From Gemmatimonadales bacterium (GTDB taxonomy: Bacteria > Gemmatimonadota > Gemmatimonadetes > Gemmatimonadales > GWC2-71-9): 64,000 nt of DNA. Where the stretch lies: positions 1 through 64,000 of the forward strand of contig JBFJHJ010000014.1 of assembly GCA_041613315.1 (NCBI GenBank), read 5' to 3'. Positions 27,823 to 49,883 of the stretch are shown here, piece after piece. How positions within the stretch are numbered: the stretch's first letter is position 1; each line of letters opens with the position of its first letter. The position numbers were made by a program, and so were the translations under genes. Under the pieces are notes generated by a model that did no database searches, was not told where the DNA came from, and worked only from the letters and a program-made list of their open reading frames with translations.

Positions 27823-28584
27823 CTAATCCCGACCGCCGTCACGGTCCGGATCCTCGAACGCCTCGATGGACCGGATGATGTTGTCGCGGACCAGGTTCTC
27901 GTACATCTCACCCTTGTTGGCCAGCGCCGGATCCACGAGGTCGCCGTCCGCGTCGCGAAACCAGCCGTTGACAGCCACGAACACGGTCACGTTCGTGGTG
28001 GTCTGCTCGCTGATGAGGAGCACCGGGACGAGGGCCAGCTCCTGGCTCGCGTTGAGATCCGTCAGATAGGCGAACGGCGTCCCGTTGTACTTCCCGCGCA
28101 CGCGAATCGAGACGTTGCCGAAATCCGGGTACGCCGCGATGAACGCCTGGTCCCTTGGGTCGCTGTCATCGGGCTTGTGAATATCGAACTCGATCTCGTC
28201 GTACAGGCCCGCGGGCACCAGGACGGCGAACTTGACGTCCGCGCCCGGATCGAGTGGCAGCTCCACCAGCACCGGCCCGAGCTCGACGTCCTCGCAGCCG
28301 GCGGGCTCGGGGTCCACGTTGCACGCGGCGGTCTCGACCCGCTTGAGCTGGATCTCCCGAACCACGATCTCGACGCTCTCGACAATCAATTCATTGGCTT
28401 GCGCGTCGGTCAGGGTGTCGTCCAGCGCCACGACCGGTGCGGTCGTGACCGCCGGTGCCGGGCTCGTCACCGCGCTTCGAGTGGCAAAGGACACCTGCAC
28501 GCCGCCCCGCAGCCCGGGGTTCGCGTCGCCGCACGCTGCGAGTCCTAGCGCGGTCGCGAGGCCCAGTACAGTCCAGAAACGCAT
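27823..28584 (-). CDS. DUF4382-like lipoprotein
   Basis: Lipobox LAAC; paralogous to 29742 and 30867; ends AFEDPDRDGGRD. Confidence 0.75.
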   Translation of the reverse strand: MRFWTVLGLATALGLAACGDANPGLRGGVQVSFATRSAVTSPAPAVTTAPVVALDDTLTDAQANELIVESVEIVVREIQLKRVETAACNVDPEPAGCEDVELGPVLVELPLDPGADVKFAVLVPAGLYDEIEFDIHKPDDSDPRDQAFIAAYPDFGNVSIRVRGKYNGTPFAYLTDLNASQELALVPVLLISEQTTTNVTVFVAVNGWFRDADGDLVDPALANKGEMYENLVRDNIIRSIEAFEDPDRDGGRD

Positions 28585-28702
28585 AGCATCTGCTCCTACC
28601 GTTGGCATGATGAGGCGACCCGGCCGGGCGCCCGAACGGGGGCCGGGTTTGAGTATAACCCGGTCCCCCGCGGGTGCAGTGGTGGTGACGCCTCGCTGTC
28701 CG

Positions 28703-29389
28703 CTACTGCGCGATCACCGGTTCCACGGTGTTGCGGACCTTGAGCTTGAGCCGCGAGCCCAGGAGTCCGCCGGCGATTGAGACTTCGTTGTACCGCCAGA
28801 TGCGAATGCGCTGGTCGGTGCGCGCCGGGTTCTGATTGGCCGGCACCGTGTACGTACCGGCATCGGGGATCCCCTGCGCCGAGAAGTCGCGCGTCTCGAC
28901 GTCGGCCCCCGCGGCCTCGGACGGCCGGTTCCACGTGATGGTGAGCGGCTGGTTGGCCGGCACCGTCGCGTTCTTGACGGGGCTCTGGATCGTGTGGGCG
29001 GCGAGCCCACCGATCACCACGTCCTTCACGTTGTCGGACCCGCGCACCACCTCGAGCCGGAAATCGCCCGAGGGGAACTGGTTCACGGTGGCGATGTAGT
29101 CGCCGGATCCTGCGGCGTCCTCGAGCAGATTGACCGTCCCCAGCGTGCCGTTCCGAATCGTGACCGTGGCGCCGGAGATGGCGGTCCCCTGCACGTCCCG
29201 CAGCGTCACCTCGAAGTCCGTCACGAAACCACCGGGCACGTCCTGCGCGTCGATGTCGGCGGTCACGCGCATCGTGCGCGTGCCCGTGCCCGGGTTGTTG
29301 CGTTCGACCGCGGGTCCCGTTCCGTCGCCGCACGCGGCGGCCAGCAAGAGCGCCAGGGCGGCGACTGAGATGTTCCTCGTCGTGTTCAT
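28703..29389 (-). CDS. Hypothetical lipoprotein (beta-rich, Ig-like)
   Basis: Lipobox AAAC; RBS GAGGAG; sigma54 promoter upstream. Confidence 0.75.
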   Translation of the reverse strand: MNTTRNISVAALALLLAAACGDGTGPAVERNNPGTGTRTMRVTADIDAQDVPGGFVTDFEVTLRDVQGTAISGATVTIRNGTLGTVNLLEDAAGSGDYIATVNQFPSGDFRLEVVRGSDNVKDVVIGGLAAHTIQSPVKNATVPANQPLTITWNRPSEAAGADVETRDFSAQGIPDAGTYTVPANQNPARTDQRIRIWRYNEVSIAGGLLGSRLKLKVRNTVEPVIAQ

Positions 29390-29478
29390 CGCTCCACTCC
29401 TCCTCGATGTCGTGACGTCAGATGCGACCGGACTGGGCGGATGGCACCCGGCCCGGACGGCGCTTCGCCACGTTAATC

Positions 29479-29494
29479 ATCAACAAGCGTGCCA
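29479..29494 (-). promoter_or_regulatory. Sigma54 promoter, near-consensus (TGGCACGCTTGTTGAT)
   Basis: TGGCAC-N5-TTGA; AT-rich IHF-like site and UAS-like motif upstream. Confidence 0.65.
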
Positions 29495-29579
29495 CTCGAG
29501 GAGTATCGCGTAACTGCTTGCTATTATTGATTTTCGAACTTTGCTCGTCGGTGCAGTCGATATGCCGGATCGAGCACAC

Positions 29580-29596
29580 TGTATCGTTTTGATGCG
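29580..29596. promoter_or_regulatory. Candidate activator UAS TGTATC-N5-GATGCG
   Basis: 86 bp from the -24 element; resembles the motif at 30693. Confidence 0.45.
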
Positions 29597-29741
29597 GCAA
29601 AGATCTTCACCTGGGTCGAAGGGGAGTGCCTCGGACGCGGGGGCCGGTGTGACATCGGGCGCCCCCGTTCGATCCGGGAGCGCCCGACTGGAACCCGCGA
29701 GGGGCCGGCGATCTCGTCCGACCCCATGCGCGTGCAGCGCT

Positions 29742-30536
29742 CTAGCTGTCTCGACGACCGTCGTGGTCGTCGTCCTCAAACGCCTCGATCGACGTCTTGA
29801 TGTTGTCCCGCACCAGATTCTCGAACTGCCCGCCCTTGTTCGCGAGGCCGGGGTCCACCAGGCTCGTACCGTTCACGAACCAGGCGCCCACGTCCACCTG
29901 CACCGTTACCGAGACGTCCATCGGCAGGTTGTCGGCATTCGTCAGGTCCAGCAGCACGTTGTGCTCCTGCTTGACGTTCAGGTCCGACAGGAACGAGGAC
30001 TCGGCGCCGCCGTTCCACGAGTATCTGACCCGGATGCTCTGATCCAACGGCCAGCTCGGGAAGCGCGCGCGGAAGTCCGCGAATCCGGGATCGTCGTTAC
30101 TGATCTTGTGGATCTCGAACTCGACCTCGTCGTAGATGTCGGGGTCCACGTTCTGGATCGTGTACGCGACGTCCACCTGGCCCAGCGGCAGCGTGAGCAC
30201 GTCCGCCGGGGTCTGGAACTTCTCGCACAGGTCGTGGCTCGGCGCGAGGTCGTCGCAGGAGTTGTCGTTCAACCGCTCGAGCTCCACCTCCCGCAACACG
30301 ATTTCGACGCGGCGGATCTCGAGCGTGTTGGTCCCGTCGCCGCAGACCAAGAAGGACGTGGTCTGGTCGAGCGCGCACGTGATCGCGCCGCCGGCGTAGC
30401 CGCTGAACGCGGGGGCCGCGGCCGGTCCCACGCCGGACGTGAACGCGAGGGTGACCCGTCCGCCGGCGGGACCGCTGTCGCTACAGGCGCCGAGCGTCGC
30501 CGCCGCGGCGAGCAAGGGGAGCACTTTGGTGCGCAT
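29742..30536 (-). CDS. DUF4382-like lipoprotein
   Basis: RBS GGAGG; lipobox LGAC; ends ENLVRDNIKTSIEAFEDDDHDGRRDS. Confidence 0.78.
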   Translation of the reverse strand: MRTKVLPLLAAAATLGACSDSGPAGGRVTLAFTSGVGPAAAPAFSGYAGGAITCALDQTTSFLVCGDGTNTLEIRRVEIVLREVELERLNDNSCDDLAPSHDLCEKFQTPADVLTLPLGQVDVAYTIQNVDPDIYDEVEFEIHKISNDDPGFADFRARFPSWPLDQSIRVRYSWNGGAESSFLSDLNVKQEHNVLLDLTNADNLPMDVSVTVQVDVGAWFVNGTSLVDPGLANKGGQFENLVRDNIKTSIEAFEDDDHDGRRDS

Positions 30537-30590
30537 CGTCTGCCTCCAGTAATGAGTGTCGTCGGTGTGCCTTCGCTGCCCCGGGAGATA

Positions 30591-30606
30591 CGCAAGGGCG
30601 GTGCCA
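30591..30606 (-). promoter_or_regulatory. Sigma54 promoter (TGGCACCGCCCTTGCG)
   Basis: Canonical TGGCAC-N5-TTGC, 55 bp upstream of the ATG. Confidence 0.8.
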
Positions 30607-30692
30607 GCAACCGGCGCGATTTCAGCGTGCGCGTAACGCCGTTCGTGAGCGTCACTTGCGTCTTGAGGGTGCCGCGTCACGCGGTCTCGCTG

Positions 30693-30709
30693 TGTGTCGA
30701 AACGATCCA
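30693..30709. promoter_or_regulatory. Candidate activator UAS TGTGTC-N5-GATCCA
   Basis: 87 bp from the -24 element. Confidence 0.45.
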
Positions 30710-30866
30710 GCTAGATCGCGGCGGTACGGGTCAGGTGGAGCGCGGTGGTGCGCGCAGAAGCTCGTGGTGTTCGGATTGCCGGGATGTCCTGTCGGCTGCC
30801 ACACGCAAACGGGGCGCCCTCGATGGATGGCGCCCCTGGTGCGGTGAGACGGATGGGCGAGTGGTG

Positions 30867-31679
30867 TTAGTGCTCGATCTCGATCTCGAAGCCGTCTTCG
30901 ATCTCCACCTCCAGCTCAATCAGGCTGTTCTGGAGCGCGGCGAGATTGAGCACGTTGGTGCCGACCTTGAACCAGAGGTCCGGCCGGATATTCACCATGA
31001 TGCTCACCGCGTTGCCGTCGGTCACCTCGAACGGGGTCGGCGGCTCGAGCTCCACCTCGATCTCCGCGCGGATGAAGGTCGTAAAGGCCACCGGTTGGCC
31101 GAGGGTGCCGTTCGCGTCCTTGGGCGTGAAGGTGCCCACCACGGCCATGCTCGCCTTGCTGGGCCAGCTCGGGAAGCCCTCCTGCGTCCGGATCCTGTCC
31201 AGCAGCGCCAGGATAATGTCGGCTTCCGCCAGGTCATCGGCGTCGTCGTCGTCGATCTCGAGCTCGTCGATCTCGAACTCCAACTCCTTGTAGAAGCCCG
31301 CCGGCACCGCCTGGTTGACGACCGTCACTTCCGAGCCGTCGAGCGGGATGTCGATGAAGAGGAACTTCACCTCGAAGTCCTCGCACTCCGGCGGCTCGGG
31401 GGACACGTCGTCACAGTCGGCGACTTCCACGGGCTCGAGCTCGAACTCCTCGACGATGACGGCGATCCGTGAGATGTCGAGGGCGCCATTGTCGCCGTCG
31501 ATCACGAGGCCCTGCTGCGCCTGTCCGGCCACGGCGAACAGCGCTCCGCCGGTCCGCGACGCGGTGATTCCCGGCGCGGTGCCGAACCGGATGGCCACGG
31601 TGCCACCGGGGCCCGTGCCGGAGTCGCACGCGGACAGGAGCGCGGCGGCGGCGAGTAGGGATACGGCTGTGCTGCGCAT
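30867..31679 (-). CDS. Acidic DUF4382-like lipoprotein
   Basis: Lipobox LSAC; same ELE..C-x7-C..F and Y.ELEFEI core as its paralogues; alternative ATG at 31688. Confidence 0.75.
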   Translation of the reverse strand: MRSTAVSLLAAAALLSACDSGTGPGGTVAIRFGTAPGITASRTGGALFAVAGQAQQGLVIDGDNGALDISRIAVIVEEFELEPVEVADCDDVSPEPPECEDFEVKFLFIDIPLDGSEVTVVNQAVPAGFYKELEFEIDELEIDDDDADDLAEADIILALLDRIRTQEGFPSWPSKASMAVVGTFTPKDANGTLGQPVAFTTFIRAEIEVELEPPTPFEVTDGNAVSIMVNIRPDLWFKVGTNVLNLAALQNSLIELEVEIEDGFEIEIEH

Positions 31680-31997: not shown

Positions 31998-32534
31998 TCA
32001 GCGTACGTGCTTGCTCACCAACTTGGTCATTTCGAACATGCTCACCTTGGACTTGCCGTTGAACACCGGACGCAGCTTCGCGTCGGCGTTGATCATCCGG
32101 CGGTTCTTGGAATCCTGCAGCCGGTGGCGCTTGATGTACGTCCACAGTTTCTTGGTGAGCTGTGTCCGCGGCAGCGGCCTGCTGCCGACGACCTGCGACA
32201 GCGCGGCGTCCGGTTGCACCGGTTTCATGAACGCCGGGTTCGGTTTGCGCTTGGCTCTCCGCTTTTTCTTCTTCGCGGCGCGGCGCCGCTTCGGTCTCCG
32301 CCGAGCGGCCTTCCGCTTCGTAGCTTTGCGCCGTGGGCGCCGCTTCGTGGTCTTCCGGCGCTTCGCCTTCTTGCGCCGTTTCTTGGCGGCCGTCTTCCGA
32401 CGCCCACGCTTCGCGGTTTTGCGCTTCGCCGCTCGGCGCTTCGGCCGCTTCGCTGCCTTTCGGCGGCGCTTCGCGGCTCCGCGTTTCGCCTTCCGACGCA
32501 CCGTTCTCTTCTTCGCCCTGCGTCTTTTCGCCAT
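31998..32534 (-). CDS. SWIB/MDM2-domain protein with a long Lys/Arg/Ala-rich histone-like N-terminus
   Basis: NPAFMKP...PRTQLTKKLWTYIKRHRLQD...INADAKL...VSMFEM. Confidence 0.9.
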   Translation of the reverse strand: MAKRRRAKKRTVRRKAKRGAAKRRRKAAKRPKRRAAKRKTAKRGRRKTAAKKRRKKAKRRKTTKRRPRRKATKRKAARRRPKRRRAAKKKKRRAKRKPNPAFMKPVQPDAALSQVVGSRPLPRTQLTKKLWTYIKRHRLQDSKNRRMINADAKLRPVFNGKSKVSMFEMTKLVSKHVR

Positions 32535-39009: not shown

Positions 39010-41664
39010 GTGACGCGATCGCTCTGGCTGTGCCCGCCGCTTCTCGTGCTGGCCGCGCTCGGTGCCGGCCACGTGTCGGCGCAACAGCTCCCTCGACCCG
39101 AGGACGCCTTCGGCTTCCGTCCGGGTGCCGATTACCAGCTCGCCGACTACGACCAGATGGTCGCCTACTACCGCCGGCTCGACGCCGCGACCGACCGGGT
39201 GCGGATGCTCGAGGTCGGCCGCACGGCTGAGGGGCGGCCGATGTACCTGGTGATCGTCTCCAGTGAAGACAACATGCGTGCCCTGGAGCGCTGGCAGTCC
39301 ACGAGCGCCCGGCTCGCCCGTGCTCGGATCGGCGACGACGAAGCGCGCCGTCTGGCCGCCGAGGGCCGCGCGGTCGTGTGGATCGACGGCGGCCTCGACG
39401 ACCAGGAGTATGCCACCGGCCAGCTGATGCCCGAGCTGATCCACCGCGTCGCCGCCGAGGAAACGGACGAGATGCGGAAGATTCGCCACAATGTCGTGGC
39501 GCTCATGATGCCGCACATGAACCCCGACGCGTCGGCGAAAGACGTCGCCTGGTATCGCGAGCAGCGGGGCACCCCGTTCGAGACGACGCGCAAGCCGCGG
39601 CTGGGCCAGCCGTACGTCGGGACCGACAACAACCGTGATTGGTTCATGATCACGCAGCCGGAGACCTGGGCCGCGTCGCGCATCTTCTACCACGAGTGGT
39701 ACCCGCAGATCGTCTACAACCACCACCAGACGGGGCCCTCGTACACCCGGATCTTCATCCCGCCCTACGCCGACCCCGTGAATCCGGACATCCATCCCGG
39801 CGTCACGGCCGGTGTGAACCTGGTGGGCGCAGCTATGGCGAGCCGCTACGCCGCGAAGCGCATGCCCGGGTACGTCTCCCGCGCCATCTACAGCATGTGG
39901 TGGAACGGCGGCATGCGCTTGGCACCCTACTACCACAACATGATCGGCATCCTCACCGAGACGTCGCACCGCTCGCCCACGCCGTACCGCTACGACACGG
40001 CCCGCTGGCCCGAGACCATCCCGATGCGGCGCGGCGAGGCGCCGCGCACCGATGGGACGAGCATCTTTCATCCGTATCCGTGGATCGGCGCGGAGTCCCG
40101 TTTCCGGGACGCGATCGACTACATGGCGGAGGCGTCGGTCGCGACGCTGAACCTGGCGGCCAACTACCGCGGAGAGCTGCTGTACAACATGTATCGGATG
40201 GGCCGCGACGCGATCGAGTCGGGCGAGGCCGGGCGCCCGTTTGCGTATGTGATGCCGGCCGAGCAGTGGGATGCCGGCGAGGCTCGCGAGCTTCTCGACG
40301 TCCTGCGCCGAGGCGGTGTCGAGGTCCACCGGGCGACGCGGGCGTTCCGGGCCGACGGCCAAGAGTACGCCGCCGGATCGTATGTGCTGTACGCGGCGCA
40401 GCCGTTCCGGCCGCACCTGATGAACCTGCTCGAGCCGCAGCGCTATCCGGAGCGGCGGCAATACCCCGGCGGGCCGCCCGAGACGCCCTACGACCTCGCG
40501 GGCTGGACGCTCCCGATGCAGATGGGCGTCGCCGTGGTCCGCGTGGACGCCACGTTCACGGCGCCGACGGAAGCGGTGGCGGACTTCGTTGCGGCGCCTG
40601 CGGGCGAGATGCGGGGGCGCGCCGACTTCGGGTACGTGCTCTCCCCGCGACTCAACGCCAGCGTCCGAGCCGTGAACCGCCTGCTCGCCGAGGGCGAGCG
40701 CGTGCACCGGGCAAGTGCCCCGGTGCAGGCGGGTCAGCGGCGGTTCGACGCCGGCGCCTTCGTGATCGAGAAAGGCGATCGCACCGAGGAGCGCGTGCGC
40801 ATCGTGGCGCGCGAGCTGGGCGTCGATGCCGCCGGCCTCGCCGGGCGGCCGTCCGTGGAGTTGCGCGCCCTCCAACTTCCGCGCGTGGGACTCTACGCGT
40901 CGTGGATGGCCGAGGACGACATGGGGTGGACCCTGTGGCTCCTCGAAACGTACGGGTTCGTCGTGGACACCCTACGCAACCGGGATATCCGGGAAGGCGA
41001 CCTGTCGCGCTACCATGCGATCATCCTGCCGGACCAGACTCCGGAGGAGCTCCTCGCGGGACACCCACCAGGCACGATGCCGGAGGCGTATGTGGGTGGC
41101 GTCGGCGCCGCGGGTGTGGCGGCGCTGGATCGGTTCGTGCGCGCGGGCGGGACGCTCATCGCCTTCGATGACGCCGCCGATTTCGCGATCGCGCAGCTGG
41201 GGCTCCCCATCCGGAACGCCGTGGCGGACATCCCGCCCGAGCGGTTCTTCATTCCCGGATCGCTGGTCCGCCTCGAGGTGGACGTGGCGCATCCGCTGGC
41301 ACGCGGCATGGAGCGCGAGACGGCGGCCTCGTACCAGCGCAGCCGGGCGTTCGAGATCGTGCGGCTCTCGAAGGCGATGGAAGGCGGGAGGGTCGAGACG
41401 CCCGACCCGCCGGCCGCGCCGGTGCACGTCGTGGCCCGCTACGGCCGCGAGCGCGTGCTCATGAGCGGCTGGGCGATGGGGGAAGACACCTACCTCGCCG
41501 GACGACCGGCGATGGTGCGGGTGGCGCACGGTCAGGGCGCCGCCGTGCTGTTTGCGTTCCGTCCGCAGTTCCGCGGCCAGCCGCGGGGGACGTACAAGCT
41601 GATCTTCAACGCGCTCTTCGCGGCGACGGAGGTCGACCGCGCTGCCGATAGCGACACCCCCTAG
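39010..41664 (+). CDS. M14-like zinc carboxypeptidase with a C-terminal glutamine-amidotransferase-like domain
   Basis: GRTAEGRPM, NPD, DNNRDW, YNHHQ and PYDLAGWTLP; first Zn motif reads DDQE. Confidence 0.85.
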   Translation: MTRSLWLCPPLLVLAALGAGHVSAQQLPRPEDAFGFRPGADYQLADYDQMVAYYRRLDAATDRVRMLEVGRTAEGRPMYLVIVSSEDNMRALERWQSTSARLARARIGDDEARRLAAEGRAVVWIDGGLDDQEYATGQLMPELIHRVAAEETDEMRKIRHNVVALMMPHMNPDASAKDVAWYREQRGTPFETTRKPRLGQPYVGTDNNRDWFMITQPETWAASRIFYHEWYPQIVYNHHQTGPSYTRIFIPPYADPVNPDIHPGVTAGVNLVGAAMASRYAAKRMPGYVSRAIYSMWWNGGMRLAPYYHNMIGILTETSHRSPTPYRYDTARWPETIPMRRGEAPRTDGTSIFHPYPWIGAESRFRDAIDYMAEASVATLNLAANYRGELLYNMYRMGRDAIESGEAGRPFAYVMPAEQWDAGEARELLDVLRRGGVEVHRATRAFRADGQEYAAGSYVLYAAQPFRPHLMNLLEPQRYPERRQYPGGPPETPYDLAGWTLPMQMGVAVVRVDATFTAPTEAVADFVAAPAGEMRGRADFGYVLSPRLNASVRAVNRLLAEGERVHRASAPVQAGQRRFDAGAFVIEKGDRTEERVRIVARELGVDAAGLAGRPSVELRALQLPRVGLYASWMAEDDMGWTLWLLETYGFVVDTLRNRDIREGDLSRYHAIILPDQTPEELLAGHPPGTMPEAYVGGVGAAGVAALDRFVRAGGTLIAFDDAADFAIAQLGLPIRNAVADIPPERFFIPGSLVRLEVDVAHPLARGMERETAASYQRSRAFEIVRLSKAMEGGRVETPDPPAAPVHVVARYGRERVLMSGWAMGEDTYLAGRPAMVRVAHGQGAAVLFAFRPQFRGQPRGTYKLIFNALFAATEVDRAADSDTP

Positions 41665-41881
41665 CCCGGCGAGCGGGCGGCGACGCGCCGGCTCGAGCCC
41701 CGGCGCTCGTCCCCACGCCGCTCGGCGATGCGCTGGTGTCGAGGTCGTGTGAGCATCCGCCGGGATGCCGATCGCGTGCACCACGCGTGAGCCGTGGCAT
41801 CGTGGTCCGGCCGCCGCCCTCCGGCTACATTTCGCTGTCCTCAGCAGACACTTCGCCGATCCGCTCCGGACCCCGGTCACT

Positions 41882-42700
41882 GTGACCTATTCCCTCGCGC
41901 TCCGTTACGCGTTGTGCGATCGTCCGGTCGAACTCGTGACGGACGATCCGGCGCTCGCCGAGCCGCTCCGACGGCTGTTTCCGGCATACGTGACGAACGG
42001 GGCCGCTCCGGCGAACCCGGACGTCGCGATCCGGCGTGCGGGCGACGGCTATCGCGTCGCGATCGGCTCGGGAACGCCGACCCTCTGCCGTACCGTCGTC
42101 GAGGTGATGGAAGTCAGCGAATTCGCGTTGTGCGAGGCCCTTCTCACGTCATGCCGCCGGTACATCCACGTGCACGCAGCCGGCGCGATCATGCACGGCG
42201 GTGCCGTGCTCGCGCTGGGGCGTGCGGGTGCGGGGAAGTCGAGTCTCGCCGTCGCGTGGAGCCGGCGTGGCCACGCGGCCCTGGGTGACGATATCGTGCT
42301 GCTCGACGTCGAGGGACGGGCACTCGCCTTCCGGCGGCTGTTCAAGGTGCACCCCGCGCTCCTGCAGAGGGTCGACGTGGACCTCGACAACACGCCGTTC
42401 TGGGTACCGGGGAGCACGGATGCGTGGTACGACCCCTCGGTGAGCGGCGGTTGGGTGGACGAGGCGCGGATCCGGGCCCTCGTGCTCGCGCGCTATCGCA
42501 CCGGCCGCCCGCTCGCGATCACCGAAGCGTCCTCTGCGGACGCGCTGAACGCGTTGGTGCACAGCGTCCTCCCGTCGGGCGTGCGCCGGCGCGCCGCGTT
42601 CGACACGCTGTGTCGGGTGGTGGCCGGAGCCCGCGCGTGGGAGGTGACGTTCGGCGACGTGGTGGCGGCCGCCCAGGCCCTGGAGGACCTCACCGCGTGA
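41882..42700 (+). CDS. HPr-kinase-like (P-loop) kinase
   Basis: HVHAAG, GRAGAGKSS Walker A and LGDD motif; start uncertain. Confidence 0.82.
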   Translation: MTYSLALRYALCDRPVELVTDDPALAEPLRRLFPAYVTNGAAPANPDVAIRRAGDGYRVAIGSGTPTLCRTVVEVMEVSEFALCEALLTSCRRYIHVHAAGAIMHGGAVLALGRAGAGKSSLAVAWSRRGHAALGDDIVLLDVEGRALAFRRLFKVHPALLQRVDVDLDNTPFWVPGSTDAWYDPSVSGGWVDEARIRALVLARYRTGRPLAITEASSADALNALVHSVLPSGVRRRAAFDTLCRVVAGARAWEVTFGDVVAAAQALEDLTA

Positions 42701-43815
42701 GCGAGCATATCGTCGTGCGGTTCCAGCGCGCGCTGGAAGATGCGGCCGAAGTCCTGGGGATGCCCGAGGAGGCGGGCGCCCGGCAGCTCGCGGTACGGTT
42801 CGGGATCGCCGGCTATCTCGCGCGGCACCGGAAACGGGTGCCCGAGACGCCACCCACGCCTGAGCACGTGGCCCCCCGGCTGTACGCCACGCTGTTTCGG
42901 GAAGCCGCGGGCGAGATCACTCGGCTCTTCAAGCGCCGCGGCGTCCGCCACTTCTTCTTCAAGGGCGTGGCACTCCTCGGCCGCATCTACGACGTGGGCG
43001 ATCGCGAGTTCGCGGACATCGATCTCGTCGTCGATCCCAAGCAGCTCAACACGGCCGTGGCGGCGCTCTACACGCTGGGCTACGTCGCCTACCGCGAGCC
43101 GGATCAGCCCGGGCCCGCGACCCTCCGGCCGGGGATGACCATGTATCTGCCCGGTCGCGGCTCCGACTTCGAGCAAGTCCTGCTCGACGTGCATTGGGGC
43201 TTGGAGCCCGTGACGCACCTGCTCCCGCGCGCCGACCTCGCGGTGCCCCAGGCCATCTGGAGCAACATCCAACTCGAGCGTGGCCTCACCGTGCCGATCG
43301 ACGAACACCACCTCGCGTTGATCGTCCATCACCTGGCGCACCACGACATGTTGCACGTGCGTGGGCTGCTGGACGCGGCACTCCTATGGGAGACACTCCC
43401 CAAGCGCGCCGGCGGCGAGGTCGACCAGGTGGTGAGGGCCATCGGCGTCCAGCGATCCATGCAAGCGGTGGCGCGGGTGCTGGTGGACGACCTCGCGCTG
43501 TATCCGCTCCGTGGGCTCCAGATCGGCGTGGACGGCCTGCGGGGCCGCGCGCTCCAGCGCGTGCTCTCGCTGCGCCGCTGGCTCGTCTGGGCGGCGCGGG
43601 CCAGTGAGCGGGAGCACGTGATGGTGACGCCCCGGCGGGTGTGGCGGCGTCTTCTGCTCGCCGACGACCTGAACGGCACCGCGCTGGGGCTCCTGGGGGA
43701 CGCGGTCAAGCCGCCCGACGAATACCTGCGGTGGCGCTGGCCCGACGCGTCCTCCGCGTTCAACGCGTGGATGCACCACCTGGGACGCGTCGCCGGCAAG
43801 CTCGTGGGTCGGTAG
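42697..43815 (+). CDS. Nucleotidyltransferase (NTP_transf_5-like)
   Basis: FKGVAL...Y...REFADIDL and DVHW. Confidence 0.85.
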   Translation: MSEHIVVRFQRALEDAAEVLGMPEEAGARQLAVRFGIAGYLARHRKRVPETPPTPEHVAPRLYATLFREAAGEITRLFKRRGVRHFFFKGVALLGRIYDVGDREFADIDLVVDPKQLNTAVAALYTLGYVAYREPDQPGPATLRPGMTMYLPGRGSDFEQVLLDVHWGLEPVTHLLPRADLAVPQAIWSNIQLERGLTVPIDEHHLALIVHHLAHHDMLHVRGLLDAALLWETLPKRAGGEVDQVVRAIGVQRSMQAVARVLVDDLALYPLRGLQIGVDGLRGRALQRVLSLRRWLVWAARASEREHVMVTPRRVWRRLLLADDLNGTALGLLGDAVKPPDEYLRWRWPDASSAFNAWMHHLGRVAGKLVGR

Positions 43816-43854
43816 ACGCTTGCCCGCCGTCGGGCGCGCCCTAATCTTGCCGAC

Positions 43855-44136
43855 ATGACGAGCGACGACCGCCGGGGGTCCCCCACCCGCCGCGACGACG
43901 TGGTGTTCCGCCAGCTGGACGACGATTGGGTCATCTTCGATCCCACGACCGATCGCCTGCACTCGCTCAACCTCTCCGCGGCGTTGATCTGGAGTCACCT
44001 CACGGGCGAGATGGATCTCGAGGAGATCGCCGCCGCGGTGGGAGCCACGTTCGATCCGCCCGTCTCCGGCGACCGGATGCTCGGCGATGTCGAAGTGGCC
44101 GTAGCCCGCTTCCGGGCCGAGGGCCTTCTCGCGTGA
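43855..44136 (+). CDS. PqqD-family RiPP recognition element
   Basis: VVFRQLDDDWVIFD..HSLNLSAALIW..L.G...EEI...F....DV......EGLL. Confidence 0.9.
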   Translation: MTSDDRRGSPTRRDDVVFRQLDDDWVIFDPTTDRLHSLNLSAALIWSHLTGEMDLEEIAAAVGATFDPPVSGDRMLGDVEVAVARFRAEGLLA

Positions 44137-45293
44137 GCGCCGCGTACTACCGCGATCTCCTCGCCCAGCGGGAGCGGATCGAAGCGTTCCGCCGGGCGAT
44201 CGCCCGCGTCGTGCGGCCCGGCGACCGCGTGCTGGATGTGGGAACCGGGCTCGGGACGTTCGCCTTCTTCGCGGCGGACGCGGGGGCGACGAAGGTCTGG
44301 GGCGTGGACGGCGATCCGGTCATCGCCACGGCGCGCGCCGTGGCCCGCGCGAACGGCTATGCCGGGCGTGTCGAGCTGATCCGGGGCTGGCTCCCCGAGA
44401 TCGAGCTGCCCGCTCCCGTTGACGTGATCATCTTTGAAGATCTCCCGAACCGGCTGGTCAACACTCGGGTGCACGGCCTGCTCCGGGCCGTCCACGACAG
44501 GTACGCGGTGCCGGGGGCGCGGACGGTGCCGGAGGCGGCCGAGGTATACCTCGCCCCGGTCCGCTCGGACGCCCTCTGGCGCACGGTCATCCCGTTCGGC
44601 GAGGGCACGCCGTACGGGATGGATTGGACGCCGCTCCGCGCGCTCGTCGCCAACCTGCCCCTCGACGGTTCCATTCCTTCCGGAGCGCTGGTGGGCGAGC
44701 CGGCGTCGCTGGGCGTCGTGCGGTTCGACGAGGTGCCGGACGCCGCCGCGCTGGGTGGTGAGACCGTCTGGCGGCTGGCCGGCTCCACGACGATCCACGG
44801 CCTCGCCTACTGGTTCGACTTGGACCTGGGAGGGGGGGAACGGCTGTCCAATGCTCCCGGCGCGTTTCCCGCCTCGTGGGGGCACCTGTTTCTCCCCCTC
44901 GATCCTCCGCTCGAGGCTGTGGGCGAGGTGCGGGCCCGCGTGCACGCGCACCGGTTCGCTGACGGCGCGCCGGGGTGGCTCAGTTGGGAGGTGACGGTGG
45001 GGGGGCGTACGGTGCGCGGGCACGAGTTCGCCGCCGAGCCGGCCTCGCTGGCCGATCTGCAGGCGGCGGCGCCTGATGGCGTGCCCCGGCTGAGTCCCCG
45101 AGGGGCGCTCGAGGGCCGTGTGTTGGCGCTCACGGACGGGCGCCGGACGATTCGCGAGATTGCACGGCAGGTAGCGGCGGAGCATCCCGCCCTCGCCCCG
45201 GCGGCGGCGGAGCGGCTTGTCGCCCGGGTGTTGGCGCATAGAATAGCGAGTGGCGACGTCCTCGCCACGGTGCACGACGGGAGTGCGAGATGA
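44133..45293 (+). CDS. PRMT-fold SAM methyltransferase with a C-terminal RRE/wHTH-like domain
   Basis: R.EAFRRAI, VLDVGTGLG, VDVIIFE, IHGLAYWFD, SNAPG..ASW; tail LTDGRRTIREIA. Confidence 0.82.
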   Translation: MSAAYYRDLLAQRERIEAFRRAIARVVRPGDRVLDVGTGLGTFAFFAADAGATKVWGVDGDPVIATARAVARANGYAGRVELIRGWLPEIELPAPVDVIIFEDLPNRLVNTRVHGLLRAVHDRYAVPGARTVPEAAEVYLAPVRSDALWRTVIPFGEGTPYGMDWTPLRALVANLPLDGSIPSGALVGEPASLGVVRFDEVPDAAALGGETVWRLAGSTTIHGLAYWFDLDLGGGERLSNAPGAFPASWGHLFLPLDPPLEAVGEVRARVHAHRFADGAPGWLSWEVTVGGRTVRGHEFAAEPASLADLQAAAPDGVPRLSPRGALEGRVLALTDGRRTIREIARQVAAEHPALAPAAAERLVARVLAHRIASGDVLATVHDGSAR

Positions 45294-45526
45294 GCGATTC
45301 CGACCGGCGGGAGTTCCTGAAGAAGCTGGCCAAGACGGCCGTCTATTCGGCGCCCGTCATCGCGAGCCTGGCGGCGCCGATCGAGCTGGTGGGCCAGGGA
45401 CAGTCGCCGACCCACAAGCACCATGGAGGCTCGGCGTCGCCGACGTCGCAGGAGCTGCCGCCCAATCCACAGCCCGGCGGGCCGCCCCCGTGGGACCAGC
45501 CGCCTCCGGGGGGGCGCCGGCGGTAA
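45290..45526 (+). CDS. Putative RiPP precursor with a twin-arginine-like leader
   Basis: ATGA overlap and RBS GGGAG; DRREFLK, YSAPVI, Ser/Thr/His/Pro-rich tail. Confidence 0.75.
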   Translation: MSDSDRREFLKKLAKTAVYSAPVIASLAAPIELVGQGQSPTHKHHGGSASPTSQELPPNPQPGGPPPWDQPPPGGRRR

Positions 45527-45558
45527 CCTCGACCTCCGAGCACGGGCGTCGAGTCTGT

Positions 45559-45594
45559 CGAGCGCCCGCGCGCCCTCCGGCGTGCGGGCGCTCG
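45559..45594 (+). terminator. 16-bp stem-loop closing the RiPP-like operon
   Basis: cgagcgcccgcgcgcc-ctcc-ggcgtgcgggcgctcg; no clear U-tract. Confidence 0.55.
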
Positions 45595-45654
45595 TGCCGT
45601 GTGTAGGTTAGCAACGGGAACCTCCTCCTCCTTCCGCGCGTTGAGGCCGGGGAC

Positions 45655-47085
45655 ATGGATCGGTTCGATCTCATCGCGATTGGTGGCGGCACTGCGGGGC
45701 TGGTGACGGCCGCGGGCGGTGCGGCGCTGGGCCTCCGGGTGGCGCTGGTGGAGCGCGCGGCGCTGGGCGGCGATTGCCTGTGGACGGGCTGTGTGCCCAG
45801 CAAGGCGCTCATTGCGTCCGCCCGGCTCGCGCACCAGATGCGCCACGCGGACCGCTTGGGGCTCATTGGCGCGTCGCCAGCGCATGCGTTCCGCTCGGTG
45901 ATGGAGCGGATGCGGGCCGCCCGAGCGCGCGTGGCGCAGCATGACGACCCCGAGCGGTTCCGGCGAATGGGCGTGGAGGTGATCCTGGGCGCCGCTCAAG
46001 TCACGGGAGAGGGACGCGTCGCCGTGGACGGACGGACGATTGCCGGGAAGCATCTCCTGGTCGCGACGGGTGCCGAGCCGTCCGTGCCCCCGATTCCCGG
46101 TCTCGCCGAGGCCGGCTACCTCACGTATCTGGCGGCGTTCGACCAGGACACCCTGCCGCCACGGATCGCCGTGCTGGGCGGCGGGCCCATCGGGCTGGAG
46201 TTCGCGCAGCTCTATCGCCGCTTGGGCGCCGACGTGACGGTGCTGGAGATGCTGCCCCAGTTGCTGCCCCGCGAAGAGGACGAGGCGTCGGCCGTGGTCC
46301 ACGCGGCGCTCGACGCGGAAGGCATCGGTGTGCTCACCGGCGCGCGGGTCGCGGGTGTCGAGACGCAGCCGGACGGTGCAAAGGTCGTGCGCGCGGCGTG
46401 TGCGAGCGGGAATGGTGAGGCGCTGGCGGTGACGGTGGATGAGATCTTCGTCGCCACCGGCCGGCGGGCGATCGCCGATCGGCTGGGACTCGCCAGCGCG
46501 GGCGTCGAGGTCGAGCGCGGCGCGGTGACGGTGGACCCGGCGCTCCGATCGACGCGCCGTGGCGTGTGGGCCGCCGGCGATGCCGCGGGCGGCCCGCAGT
46601 TCACCCACGTGGCGGAGTATCACGCCAAGATCGTGTTACGGAACATCGTCGCGCCGTTCACCGCGAAAGTCGACTACCGCTCGGTGCCGGCCGTGACCTA
46701 TACCGATCCCGAGGTCGCCCGCGTCGGCCTCACCGAGGCCGAGGCCCGCGAGCGCTACGGCACCGTGGAGGTGTACCGCTACGCGTTCGCGGATCTGGAT
46801 CGGGCGATCGTGGACGGCCACACCGATGGGTTCGTGAAGGTGGTAACGCACGGCCGGGGCCGGATCGTGGGGGCGACCGTGGTCGCGAGCGGCGCCGGCG
46901 AGCTGCTTCAGCCGCTCGTGCTGGCGATGGCGCAGGAGATCCCGCTGCCGAAGCTGGCGCGAATGGTCTACCCCTACCCCACGATGGTGGAGGGCGTGAA
47001 GCGGACCGCCGACGGCTACTACCGCTCGAGGTTCACCGGGTGGAGGGCGCGTCTCGTGAAGCGGGTGGCACGGTGGCTGGCGTAG
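45655..47085 (+). CDS. Pyridine nucleotide-disulfide oxidoreductase (Lpd/MerA-like)
   Basis: IGGGTAG, GGDCLWTGCVPSK, GGGPIG and YPYPT. Confidence 0.9.
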   Translation: MDRFDLIAIGGGTAGLVTAAGGAALGLRVALVERAALGGDCLWTGCVPSKALIASARLAHQMRHADRLGLIGASPAHAFRSVMERMRAARARVAQHDDPERFRRMGVEVILGAAQVTGEGRVAVDGRTIAGKHLLVATGAEPSVPPIPGLAEAGYLTYLAAFDQDTLPPRIAVLGGGPIGLEFAQLYRRLGADVTVLEMLPQLLPREEDEASAVVHAALDAEGIGVLTGARVAGVETQPDGAKVVRAACASGNGEALAVTVDEIFVATGRRAIADRLGLASAGVEVERGAVTVDPALRSTRRGVWAAGDAAGGPQFTHVAEYHAKIVLRNIVAPFTAKVDYRSVPAVTYTDPEVARVGLTEAEARERYGTVEVYRYAFADLDRAIVDGHTDGFVKVVTHGRGRIVGATVVASGAGELLQPLVLAMAQEIPLPKLARMVYPYPTMVEGVKRTADGYYRSRFTGWRARLVKRVARWLA

Positions 47086-47783
47086 GCCGGGCGCGTCCGT
47101 GGCTGAAACTCGCGCTGCTCGCGGCGATGCTGGGGGTGGCGGTGATCGTGGTGCGGTTCTCTCCGGCGTCGCGCTACGTGACACAGGAAGGCGTGTTGGA
47201 CCTGCTCCGGGCGGTCAGGGGATCGGGCTGGGCGCCGGTCGTCTTCGTCGCGCTCTACGCGGGCGCCACCGCGCTGGCGTTTCCCGGATCGCTGCTCACG
47301 ATCGGCGGCGGTGCGGTGTTTGGATTCGGGTGGGGAGTGGTGTTCAACACGATCGCCGCGAACATCGGTGCCAACGCCGCCTTCGGCCTGGCGCGTGCGC
47401 TGGGGCGTGACGGGATCGAGCGACTGGTGGGGAAACGCTTGGCGGGCCTCGACCGCGCCACTCAGCGACACGGGTTCACGGGACTCCTGATCCTGCGGCT
47501 CATCCCGCTCGTCCCGTTCAATGCGCTCAACTTCGGTTCGGGGCTCACGGCCATGCGGTGGCGGGATTACGCGCTCGCCACCGTGATCGGTATCTTCCCG
47601 GGGACGCTCATCTACACCTTCTTCGCGGACGCGCTCGTGGCAGGGTCGACGGAAGCCGGCGCCGCGGCGCGGACGCGCCTGTGGATCGCCGGCGGGCTGC
47701 TCGTGGCGCTCTCGCTGGTGCCGATCATCGCGCGGCGCCTGGGGTACAAGCCACCATCGGACCGCACACACGAGGCCGCATGA
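47073..47783 (+). CDS. TVP38/DedA (SNARE-associated) membrane protein
   Basis: FPGSLLTIGGG..FG, LRLIPLVPFNALN and GIFPGT. Confidence 0.88.
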   Translation: MAGVGRARPWLKLALLAAMLGVAVIVVRFSPASRYVTQEGVLDLLRAVRGSGWAPVVFVALYAGATALAFPGSLLTIGGGAVFGFGWGVVFNTIAANIGANAAFGLARALGRDGIERLVGKRLAGLDRATQRHGFTGLLILRLIPLVPFNALNFGSGLTAMRWRDYALATVIGIFPGTLIYTFFADALVAGSTEAGAAARTRLWIAGGLLVALSLVPIIARRLGYKPPSDRTHEAA

Positions 47784-48604
47784 CTGGATGGGTTCACCGC
47801 GTGCTGCTCACCGCTGCCCTGCTCGGCGGGGCGGTGCCCGGCGTGGCGCAAGAGCTGCCCGATCCCGCGGCGTTCACCGCGGTGCTCCAGCGGTACGCAC
47901 ACGGGGACCTCGTGGATTACGCGGCCCTCCGCGCGGACCGGGCGGGGCTCGATGCCTTTGTCGCCAAGCTGGGGCGCACGGATCCCGCGGCGCTGGAGCG
48001 CGCGTCGCGCGAGACGCAGCTCGCCTTCTGGATCAATGCGTACAATGCCTGCGCGCTCACGCTGGTGATCGACCACTACCCCATCAAGCCCGCGGGCTTC
48101 CCGGCGTCGCTGGTTCGCTCGCTGCAGGGCGTGCCGGCGAACTCGATCCGACAGATCCCCGACACGTGGACGCGGACGTTCTGCCCCGTGGCCGGCGCCC
48201 CGCGGGCGCTGGACGAGATCGAGCACGAGATCCTGCGCCCCATGGGCGAGCCTCGCATTCACTTCGCGGTGAACTGCGCCTCGCGCTCGTGCCCGGTCCT
48301 CGCCACCGAGGCGTACACCGGCGAGGCGATCGACCAGCAGCTGGATGCCGCGGTGCGGCGCCTCATCGCCGATCCCCGACAGTATCGCCTGGAGCGCAAC
48401 GGCACCGCCGTCCTGCGCCTCAACAAGGTGCTCGACTGGTACAAGGACGATTTCGGCGGCACGGCCGGCGTGGTGGCGTTCCTCCGCCCGTACTTACCGG
48501 CGGACGACGCGGCGTATATCGCCACACACGGGCCGCCGACCGTGGGGTACCTGCCCTACGACTGGACGCTGAACGACACGGCGGTGTTCACATCCGGCGG
48601 CTAG
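47780..48604 (+). CDS. DUF547 protein
   Basis: VDYAAL, AFWINAYNA, IEHEILR, RIHFAVNCASRSCP and YDWTLN. Confidence 0.92.
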   Translation: MTGWVHRVLLTAALLGGAVPGVAQELPDPAAFTAVLQRYAHGDLVDYAALRADRAGLDAFVAKLGRTDPAALERASRETQLAFWINAYNACALTLVIDHYPIKPAGFPASLVRSLQGVPANSIRQIPDTWTRTFCPVAGAPRALDEIEHEILRPMGEPRIHFAVNCASRSCPVLATEAYTGEAIDQQLDAAVRRLIADPRQYRLERNGTAVLRLNKVLDWYKDDFGGTAGVVAFLRPYLPADDAAYIATHGPPTVGYLPYDWTLNDTAVFTSGG

Positions 48605-48606
48605 CC

Positions 48607-49293
48607 GTGCCCCCGCTCGGCGTCGTCATTCCCACTCTCAACGAGGAGCCTTACCTCCCGGGTCTGTTGGACGATCTCGGCCGGCTCGCCGTGCCGGCGG
48701 ATGTCGTCGTGGTCGATGGCGGCTCGACGGACGGCACCGTCGCCGTCGCCCGGCGACACGGTGCCCGAACGGTGACGGCGGCGCGTGGGCGCGCGACGCA
48801 GATGAACGTCGGCGCACAGATCGTGGCGGGCGATTGGCTGTGCTTTCTTCACGCCGACGTGCGGCTGATCGACGATGCCCGGCGGGAGCTTGCGCTCGCC
48901 GTCGAGGGGGGGGACCTCCAGGTCGGGGTCTGGCGTCTGGCGATCGAGGGGGCCGGTGTGGCGCTCCGCGTGATGGAACTCGGGGCCTGGGTGAGGGACC
49001 GTCTGGGCGGTCTCCCGTACGGCGACCAGGGACTCGTGGTGCGACGGGATCTGTTTGCGGCGGTCGGCGGCTTCGCCGGGATTCCGATCATGGAGGATGT
49101 GGCGATGGTGCGGGCGTTGCGGCGGCGCGCCCGCGTGCACCGGTTCCGCTCCGCGGTGCGGGTGTCGCCTCGGCGGTGGCGGCGGCAGGGCCCGTGGCGC
49201 ACATGGCTGCAGAACATCGCGCTCCTTGCCGGCTACCTCGCCGGCGTCTCACCCCAGCGGTTGTCGCGCTGGTATCCGCCCGAGCCCCGATGA
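48607..49293 (+). CDS. GT2 glycosyltransferase (TIGR04283-like)
   Basis: VIPTLNE, VDGGSTD, GRATQMNVGA, FLHAD, YGDQG and IMED. Confidence 0.9.
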   Translation: MPPLGVVIPTLNEEPYLPGLLDDLGRLAVPADVVVVDGGSTDGTVAVARRHGARTVTAARGRATQMNVGAQIVAGDWLCFLHADVRLIDDARRELALAVEGGDLQVGVWRLAIEGAGVALRVMELGAWVRDRLGGLPYGDQGLVVRRDLFAAVGGFAGIPIMEDVAMVRALRRRARVHRFRSAVRVSPRRWRRQGPWRTWLQNIALLAGYLAGVSPQRLSRWYPPEPR

Positions 49294-49883
49294 CCGCGGT
49301 CCTGTTGTTCGCCAAAGCGCCGCGGCCGGGGCGGGTCAAGACGCGCCTGGCGGCGGAGATCGGAGAGGCCGCGGCGGTCGCGGCGTATCGGGCGGTGGGC
49401 GCGCGTGTGTCGTCACAGGTAGGAGCGCGGTACCCGCTCACAGTCTGGTACGATCCCCCCGACGCACTGGAAGAGATGCGTGACTGGCTCGGCGATTGGG
49501 TGTACCGGCCGCAACGCGGCGCCGACCTCGGCGAGCGGCTCAGGCACGCCTTCGCGGCCCACTTTGCAGACGGGGACGCGCCGGTGCTCGCGATCGGGGC
49601 GGACGCGCCTGACGTCCGCGCCGACACTATCGCGGCGGCCCACGCGGCGCTGGCGACCGCGGATGTGGTTCTGGGACCGGCCGTCGACGGCGGGTACTAC
49701 CTGATCGGCTTGGCGCGGGACCAGCCGGGGGTGTTTGCTGGCGTGCCGTGGGGTGGGGCGGACGTGATGCGGGTCACACTCCATCGCTGCCGGCGTCTCG
49801 GGGTGCGCGTGCGACGACTCCCCGTCCTGCGCGACCTCGATACGGTCGCCGATCTCCGCACATTTGGTGATTTTCTACCTTGA
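49290..49883 (+). CDS. DUF2064 / TIGR04282-like transferase
   Basis: FAKAPRPGRVKTRL, DLGERL, IGAD.P, GPAVDGGYYLIG and DLDT. Confidence 0.9.
   Translation: MTAVLLFAKAPRPGRVKTRLAAEIGEAAAVAAYRAVGARVSSQVGARYPLTVWYDPPDALEEMRDWLGDWVYRPQRGADLGERLRHAFAAHFADGDAPVLAIGADAPDVRADTIAAAHAALATADVVLGPAVDGGYYLIGLARDQPGVFAGVPWGGADVMRVTLHRCRRLGVRVRRLPVLRDLDTVADLRTFGDFLP

Follow-up and report, generated by a model that had tools for sequence, protein, structure and literature searches.

What does a peptide-modifying gene cassette make when it carries a kinase, a leader-binding protein and a methyltransferase (MT) and has neither a cyclase nor a protease of its own? Five genes in the window analyzed here, a 64,000-nt stretch of contig JBFJHJ010000014.1 from a Gemmatimonadales bacterium, raise the question (coordinates are positions in this window; the host genome, labeled G000, is 82.9% complete). 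Our answer, to which we give a probability of roughly 0.6, is a RiPP route (RiPP: peptide synthesized by the ribosome and modified post-translationally) in which a RiPP recognition element (RRE) would present the precursor, the kinase would phosphorylate it, the MT would methylate it, and the housekeeping twin-arginine translocation (Tat) system and signal peptidase I would export and trim it. The end product would be a linear, phosphorylated, probably methylated 43-residue peptide. Compared with the route as a whole, our confidence is higher for phosphorylation and lower for the target of the MT and for the role of the product. The five genes are as follows.

41882..42700, + strand: HPr-kinase-like peptide kinase, 272 aa, GTG start; best model HprK-related kinase A, TIGR04352, 52.4 bits, below its cut-off of 200
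42697..43815, + strand: NTP_transf_5 nucleotidyltransferase-fold protein (NTase), accessory, 372 aa; PF14907, 83.3 bits, cut-off 31.2
43855..44136, + strand: predicted stand-alone PqqD/RRE leader-binding protein, 93 aa; PF05402, 41.5 bits, over cut-off
44133..45293, + strand: protein arginine methyltransferase (PRMT)-fold, S-adenosylmethionine (SAM)-dependent MT, 386 aa, with a C-terminal three-helix domain at about residues 320–370
45290..45526, + strand: precursor peptide, 78 aa; leader 1–35, core from Gln36

An earlier note on this DNA had described five co-oriented genes with three overlapping start/stop junctions and a closing 16-bp hairpin, and the coordinates of the open reading frames (ORFs) and of the hairpin bear this out: 4-nt overlaps join the genes at 42697 (GTGA), 44133 (GTGA), and 45290 (ATGA), and the remaining junction, between the NTase and PqqD genes, is a 39-nt gap. 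Its family calls hold at the cut-offs for NTP_transf_5 and PqqD and by fold for the PRMT; HPr-kinase-like is the best model for the kinase and stays below the cut-off. The note had also proposed an uncharacterised modification pathway acting on the small terminal ORF, and what follows supports that proposal in the form of a conserved, RRE-dependent cassette.

By its sequence, the 78-aa ORF is a conserved precursor. The leader holds RRxFLK, YxxP, a proline at −6 from the predicted cleavage site and an L-x-G site, with YxxP lying within the hydrophobic part of the Tat-type signal discussed below. The core follows with a predicted phosphorylation site at Ser39 (+4), His42/Lys43 (+7/+8), and a Pro-rich tail. 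Our comparison set holds 125 relatives, made up of 37 plus the new ones among the best 120 of 209. The two arginines, the phenylalanine, the tyrosine, Pro−14 and Pro−6 are invariant in all 125; Gly or Ala occupies −1 in 124, Gln +1 in 110, Ser +4 in 94, and His or Lys +7 in 108. A fixed Ser/Thr at +4 together with His/Lys at +7 is found in 92 of the 125, against a mean of 7 after shuffling. Numerous changes in the leader codons are synonymous. Within the first 20 core residues of 251 relatives, Met (5.1-fold), Lys (4.0-fold), Ser (2.6-fold) and His (2.1-fold) are enriched, and Arg is at 0.2-fold. Several points count against leaning too heavily on these figures: the set was gathered by its resemblance to the leader and to the first residues of the core, which builds in part of the conservation; the kin are not independent; and two precursors depart from the near-Ser rule, L004 with no Ser/Thr at +3 to +6 and L106 with its Ser/Thr further out. 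Separately, at L046:7283-7813 two precursor genes stand in tandem, one with a Cys pair motif, C-D-Y/W-x-P-x-x-C, and the other with a Met-Gly repeat; the Cys pair motif recurs in several relatives.

Phosphorylation is the most secure step, by close precedent. The kinase carries H98-G113-G116-G118-K119-S120-D136-D137, thus all catalytic residues of characterised peptide kinases, with the spacing of the BsfK motif H148-G163-G166-G168-K169-S170-D186-D187 (PMC10368454). In BsfA, the leader has Tyr−17 and Pro−14 as well as Leu−12, and Ser3 is phosphorylated in a reaction stimulated by the RRE (PMC10368454); likewise, LppK phosphorylates Ser3 of its core (PMC13381572). Counted from the predicted cleavage site, our precursor is in the BsfA register: −17 is Tyr, −14 is Pro, and −12 is hydrophobic. 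We therefore propose that the kinase would phosphorylate, perhaps repeatedly, the Ser at core +4/+5, here Ser39. G000 has a second HprK-like gene (C26:6019, within C26:1399-6945); it lies amid genes that read as glycosyltransferases by their sequence starts, with no PqqD in reach.

The RRE would bind the YxxP-x-hydrophobic motif inside the Tat-type signal, and its binding would also retain the peptide until it is modified. The predicted RRE–leader complex scores 0.57 against 0.01 for the best control, which the prediction tool grades as weak support; its runs agree in at least 95% of contacts, and the partner's predicted local distance difference test score (pLDDT) is at least 63. The mark used for such scores is reached by 116 of 157 solved complexes and 2 of 215 mismatched pairs, and, with a score of 0.60 or lower, by just 18 of the 157 and by both mismatches. 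The score may reflect likeness to solved RRE–leader complexes; the cassette RRE has no sequence match among solved structures.

The NTase suggests an accessory step. In L001 (582-2468), kinase and NTase are joined in a single 628-aa ORF, either by natural fusion or through loss of a stop, and this fusion suggests that the NTase acts on the product of the kinase, where it would cap the phosphate with a sugar or nucleotide. No NTase was found within 12 kb of the cassette in L044, L049 and L050, that is, at 3 of 18 loci. Of its relatives, PsmN decorates the phosphate in vivo with one hexose or two, and nucleotidylation is not excluded for it (PMC8498205, PMC9266682), whereas deletion of lppN changed nothing and LppN showed no activity on its peptide (PMC13381572). 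Given this absence and these relatives, the nucleotidylation proposed at first is not established.

How does such a peptide leave the cell and lose its leader? Read against the twin-arginine consensus, the front end of the leader reads as a Tat-type signal, and Tat export would be followed by signal peptidase I cleavage at L-x-G/A|Q (Gly35|Gln36). An in-house Tat rule (RR motif, uncharged stretch, signal peptidase site) is passed by 113 of the 125 relatives. When Tat models were run on 21 leaders, TIGR02811 gave weak matches to 11 and TIGR01409 to 6. The cleavage site is the usual signal peptidase pattern of G000 as read from its proteins: among those with a hydrophobic N-terminus, the first Gln is preceded by Ala or Gly in 180 of 266, against 88 of 406 controls, and 52 of those 180 have Leu at −3. 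TatC is present in G000 and in 16 of 16 cassette genomes, one match being partial. When 1.84 billion representatives were searched with a profile, 186 matched, and the distant ones retain RRxF, YxxP and an A-x-A site; those outside the phylum keep all three despite a different spacer length.

Alternatively, the segment RRxFLKKLAK could be an enzyme recognition helix, the modified product then staying in the cytoplasm, whole or after trimming by a general protease. Several observations pull this way and away from export. No Tat model reaches its cut-off on the leader (best E 0.002), and Pfam TAT_signal gives no match. Lys residues follow RRxFL, so the leader could instead be an amphipathic docking helix, which the extra helical domain of the MT could accommodate (that domain has no BLAST similarity to the cassette RRE). 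In addition, the in-house rule is lax, since 76 of 2378 G000 proteins pass it, and TatC also occurs in 11 of 14 control genomes, so that its presence says little. Yet the invariant RR, F and Pro−6, together with Gly/Ala−1 and Gln+1, fit the signal peptidase pattern of G000, and the distant relatives keep their motifs across another spacer length. We consider a cytoplasmic product unlikely. Export by Tat and cleavage by signal peptidase I probably account for the missing dedicated protease and exporter, and it is this Tat-type signal with its signal-peptidase site that the earlier note overlooked. As an aside, the TatC of G000 lies at the N-terminal end of a longer ORF (C19:31597-35103, about 1170 aa), and 9 of 10 family f1 genomes show the same length.

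Is the cassette instead half of a lasso peptide cluster whose B2 protease and cyclase genes sit elsewhere? We surveyed 401 genomes of the phylum, 36 of which have an MT match at E 1e-15, in 37 places; 20 of these places, then five more, were analyzed with wide flanks. A separate MT scan gave 10 loci, at all of which the five genes stand in identical order, all relatives found being Gemmatimonadota; conservation with a similar small ORF, a point the earlier note had left to be checked, is thus confirmed. Among the 20 wide-flank loci, the seven with MT identities of 37–49% all contain RRE, MT, precursor and kinase, in variable order. The other 13, at about 30% MT identity, are mostly lasso clusters, with a cyclase match at 11 and a B2 match at 9.

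That the distant MT relatives sit in complete lasso clusters lends the split-cluster reading some appeal. It gains further from position −2, which is Val, Leu or Ile in 98 of the 125 precursors, compatible with the Bsf-type B2 protease rule (PMC10368454) and counting against our reading, and from a B2-sized gene in 5 of the 14 cassette genomes that are more than 90% complete, G000 itself being just 82.9% complete. However, B2, cyclase and S26 peptidase are absent from 18 of 18 cassette loci, with the same queries that detected a cyclase at 11 of the 13 distant-MT loci (for S26, tblastn with the two S26 proteins of G000; LppS itself was not a query), and none of the three has a match in positions 33001-54000 of the window, in line with the claim made at the outset that the cassette has no cyclase or protease. 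By ORF reading, each of the five B2-sized genes lies in a separate cluster with its own PqqD; of the other nine genomes, eight give only weak B2 matches in ORFs of 522–686 aa and one gives none. The precursors also mostly lack lasso-type residues: of 125, 1 has Thr−2 and 4 have Asp/Glu at +7 to +9. In a kinase tree, the 16 cassette kinases group together (support 94/92); a split with 99/98 support sets them and three other kinases of Tat-type precursors apart from 12 of the 13 lasso kinases, the thirteenth being a long-branch kinase on the cassette side. Because of this split and the absence of B2 and cyclase, the cassette is a separate lineage, not a decayed local lasso cluster, and we reject the split-cluster reading, largely refuted as it is, as scarcely credible. 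In G000 itself, the cassette PqqD is the only PqqD found, the two Asn_synthase genes (C37, C40) lie on other contigs, and Transglut_core3 was not found in this 82.9% complete genome.

Variation among the loci indicates which parts belong together. The precursor, by its leader profile, occurs in 18 of the 401 genomes and directly 3′ of the MT in 16 of these 18; family f2 has it in 0 of 93 genomes although 14 of the 93 carry the lasso-type MT. MT-free cassettes exist within the phylum (L102, L104, L105) and outside it. A metagenome search with one distant precursor gave seven loci: two with the kinase/RRE/NTase trio (L110, L115), one with the precursor alone (L111), and four ordinary Tat enzymes. 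L110 and L115 are MT-free; their precursor adjoins genes for PqqD, NTP_transf_5 and a kinase that is TIGR04352-like and groups with the cassette kinases' side of the tree. Precursor and kinase thus remain together where MT or NTase is missing (L102, L104, L105, L110, L115). Since MT-free versions exist in and outside the phylum, RRE, kinase and Tat-type precursor are the core of the system, and MT and NTase are add-ons. Other searches add little: a weak precursor match in G097 has no cassette gene nearby; the stretches around the MT-like matches in L032, L057, L108 and L109, which are short or poorly called, contain no cassette that we could see; and plasmid searches gave no match for kinase or MT and one weak archaeal match for the NTase. 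We also note a PqqD–kinase fusion at L115:6351-7550, between a Tat-YxxP precursor and an NTP_transf_5 gene on a metagenome contig outside the cassette clade, and, at L105:6949-9246, a second cassette of genome G356, MT-free and made up of PqqD, Tat-YxxP precursor, kinase and a family 2 glycosyltransferase.

The same pairing bears on whether the peptide is the substrate at all. The enzymes could in principle have another target, be it a polymer of the envelope, a small molecule or a different protein, with the small Tat protein as a co-regulated passenger; LppN was inactive on its own peptide (PMC13381572), and the two precursors without a near Ser point the same way. We regard this as very unlikely: the cassette has an RRE together with the YxxP motif cognate to it, the fixed Ser of the precursor sits at the Bsf/LPP distance, and precursor and kinase stay paired when MT or NTase is gone.

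What does the MT do? It matches PRMT6 across both domains (E 1.7e-23, residues 5–262). Its predicted structure has a pLDDT of 91.4, Foldseek matches it to PRMT6/1/3, and VIA-align gives Z scores of 23–30 to 15 PRMT entries, the next fold scoring 12.5. The modeled MT thus has the full PRMT fold, Rossmann plus beta-barrel. Across 57 close relatives, three elements never vary (the SAM-binding Arg15, motif I and Glu102), and 55 of these relatives keep Asp103. The PRMT pocket has two loops named double-E and THW. At the position of the second Glu of PRMT6, the cassette MTs have Gly, Ala, Ser or Thr, and the His of the THW loop is replaced by Ser, giving S-W instead of H-W. In 62 distant relatives, the pocket loop reads D-L/I/V-R-G, with D and R in all 62, which makes for a different pocket. 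With these two arginine-binding residues lost and a core nearly free of Arg (Arg at +3 to +12 in 5 of 125), arginine methylation of the core is unlikely; the MT that the earlier note had called PRMT-like is upheld in fold, and arginine is a doubtful target for it.

The only positional lead is at +7/+8, where 19 of 25 precursors beside an MT have His or Lys, against 1 of 5 without an MT (the count leaves out three spurious pattern matches, and the pattern did not pick up L102). On this contrast, our tentative assignment, held at slightly less than even odds, is that the PRMT-fold MT would N-methylate the His or Lys there, here His42/Lys43, and not an arginine. Two facts tell against it: four MT-linked precursors have Met, not His or Lys, at these positions, and the MT-less precursors are distant kin, so the contrast may be one of lineage alone. 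The MT may instead methylate the phosphate or the twin arginines; N-terminal methylation was set aside by reasoning, as the mature N-terminus would form only after export. In one version of the twin-arginine idea, the MT is a true arginine methyltransferase that gates Tat export by acting on the leader. The full PRMT fold, the invariant Arg15 and Glu102 with the additional Asp103, and the status of the RR pair as the only conserved arginines would suit it. We nevertheless judge it very unlikely: the second Glu and the THW His are lost, the lasso precursors served by a sister MT clade lack a twin-arginine Tat leader, and, as a matter of reasoning, such methylation would be hard to reverse for export.

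The sister PRMT-fold MTs, with the D-L/I/V-R-G pocket, occur in paeninodin-type lasso clusters of Gemmatimonadota (L051-L056 and L058-L063, from G328, G055, G385, G106, G234, G273, G362, G349, G286, G307, G230 and G099), and most of the precursors next to them end in Lys/Arg then Ser/Thr. The MT family comprises at least 1022 clusters at E 1e-20; no study of this family was found in the literature searched, whose coverage excludes most subscription journals.

Among known systems, the closest is the family of linear polyphosphorylated peptides (LPP; LppA/K/B/S/D/N) of Bacillota, described by Popov et al. in 2026 (PMC13381572). Both systems have an HprK-like kinase, a discrete RRE and an NTP transferase and have no cyclase. 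Both have a YxxP leader, a conserved N-terminus, a variable C-terminus and signal-peptidase-type cleavage (predicted for the cassette), with a Ser close to the start of the core, S3 in LPP and S+4 here. The differences are that LPP has its own SipW-like peptidase and an MsbA-like pump, whereas the cassette has S26 at 0 of 18 loci and an ATP-binding cassette (ABC) transporter gene directly 3′ of the precursor at 1 of 18 (L048), a single locus that does not favor our export route; that LPP precursors follow the consensus YxxPxVLxHQxIxFETxxS, from which cassette precursors diverge after YxxP; that LPP is reported as Bacillota-restricted and the cassette is in Gemmatimonadota; and that the cassette adds a twin-arginine leader and a PRMT-fold MT, LPP having no MT. 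The words methyltransferase, Tat and Gemmatimonad do not occur in the main text of that paper; clusters from outside Bacillota may be listed in its Supplementary Data 1-2 and Figure 23. Thus, the cassette works like LPP but falls outside it by peptidase, pump, consensus and phylum. It is a real, conserved, unstudied variant of linear phosphorylated peptide systems; the broader claim of a wholly undescribed kind of system, made before, gives way to the publication in 2026 of a cyclase-free kinase/RRE/NTP-transferase RiPP.

The HPr-rel-A systems are a second relative: they combine kinase, RRE and NTase without a core RiPP enzyme, as the cassette does. TIGR04352 is the best model for its kinase, and an RRxF-YxxP-AxA precursor lies beside such a trio in two of the seven metagenome loci (L110, L115). 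The cassette differs in staying under both cut-offs, for the TIGR04352 kinase (52.4/200 bits) and the TIGR04353 PqqD-family chaperone (22.7/35 bits), and the Gemmatimonadota form adds the MT and the His/Lys+7 core. No paper using the HPr-rel-A names was found in the literature searched. The phospho-lasso systems (paeninodin PadeK/ThcoK, pseudomycoidin PsmK/PsmN, Bsf BsfK/BsfB1) share the kinase motif, the RRE and NTP_transf_5, and Bsf shares as well the Tyr−17/Pro−14/−12 register and a near phosphoserine, Ser3 (PMC10368454); the cassette lacks their B2, cyclase, ring acceptor (Asp/Glu at core 7–9) and Thr−2. To the eukaryotic PRMT1/3/4/6, the MT is alike in its Rossmann plus beta-barrel fold (template-modeling score 0.6–0.7, Z up to 30), SAM-binding Arg and first Glu, and unlike in its lost second Glu and THW His, its extra C-terminal helical domain and its candidate substrate, which is nearly Arg-free. 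Finally, the precursors of bufferins, which are RiPP metallophores, carry a general export signal removed by signal peptidase, with no dedicated transporter (PMC11626156). Their export is by Sec, not Tat, their chemistry is that of an MNIO enzyme on Cys, and their signal is dispensable for modification, whereas the RRE motif of the cassette lies inside the signal.

For orphan kinase/RRE/nucleotidyltransferase cassettes, these results name a substrate and a site. If the reading is true, RiPP export extends to the Tat pathway; the RiPP export precedents found in the literature searched are only Sec-exported ones and engineered use of Tat. As an enzyme, the MT is bacterial, small and soluble, with the PRMT fold, a changed pocket and a candidate substrate in hand, and the cassette provides a second setting for working out the function of NTP_transf_5, which was left open for PsmN and LppN. 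No study of the cassette's combination of features was found in the same literature, with most subscription journals outside its coverage. We speculate, with more doubt than belief, that it represents a RiPP class in which one leader is both RRE dock and Tat signal, the RRE serves as proofreading chaperone, a PRMT-fold MT has been retooled to His/Lys near a phosphoserine, and MTs of the same family, differing in their pocket, tailor the lasso peptides of Gemmatimonadota. A metal-binding role for the product in the cell envelope, suggested by cores that are rich in Met, His and Lys and would carry phosphate, is more speculative still.

Two features of the DNA could bear on expression.

45217..45244, + strand: sigma-70-like site TTGTCG-16-TAGAAT, candidate internal promoter within the 3′ end of the MT gene
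45559..45594, + strand: G+C-rich hairpin, 16 bp, 3′ of the precursor stop, without a U-tract

The sigma-70-like site lies 45 nt upstream of the precursor start and is the only such site in 41600-45700, where 0.1 is expected. Eight of 24 loci have it in the same register, where it overlaps CTT, a rare codon for Leu (3.3% of Leu codons), and the best sigma-70-like score is at least 9 in 11 of 24 upstream stretches, against 0–2 in five control sets. From its sequence, this candidate promoter would yield additional precursor transcript. The hairpin has arms of 16 nt each (45559-45574 and 45579-45594) that are 94% complementary around a 4-nt loop; as RNA, all 16 positions pair, with z −2.66 for the 128-nt spacer. 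No U-tract follows it, and it is not among the predictions of a terminator scan. The hairpin may end or protect the transcript.

By window gene calls and family matches, the cassette is directly flanked upstream by a gene for a peptidase M14 and downstream by one for a flavin oxidoreductase; no radical SAM gene is among these direct neighbors in the gene calls, no family search having been aimed at radical SAM. The flavin oxidoreductase gene starts a gene run (45655-49883) whose further members we take to be a TVP38-type membrane protein, a DUF547-type protein, a glycosyltransferase and a DUF2064-type protein. This run also trails the cassette in L001, L003-L005 and L047, not in other loci. 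Upstream, positions 27823-31679 contain four predicted lipoprotein genes in tandem (228–270 aa, with similar starts), and genes like them are found upstream of the cassette in L003-L005. Positions 31998-32534 encode a histone-like protein of 178 aa, rich in Lys and Arg.

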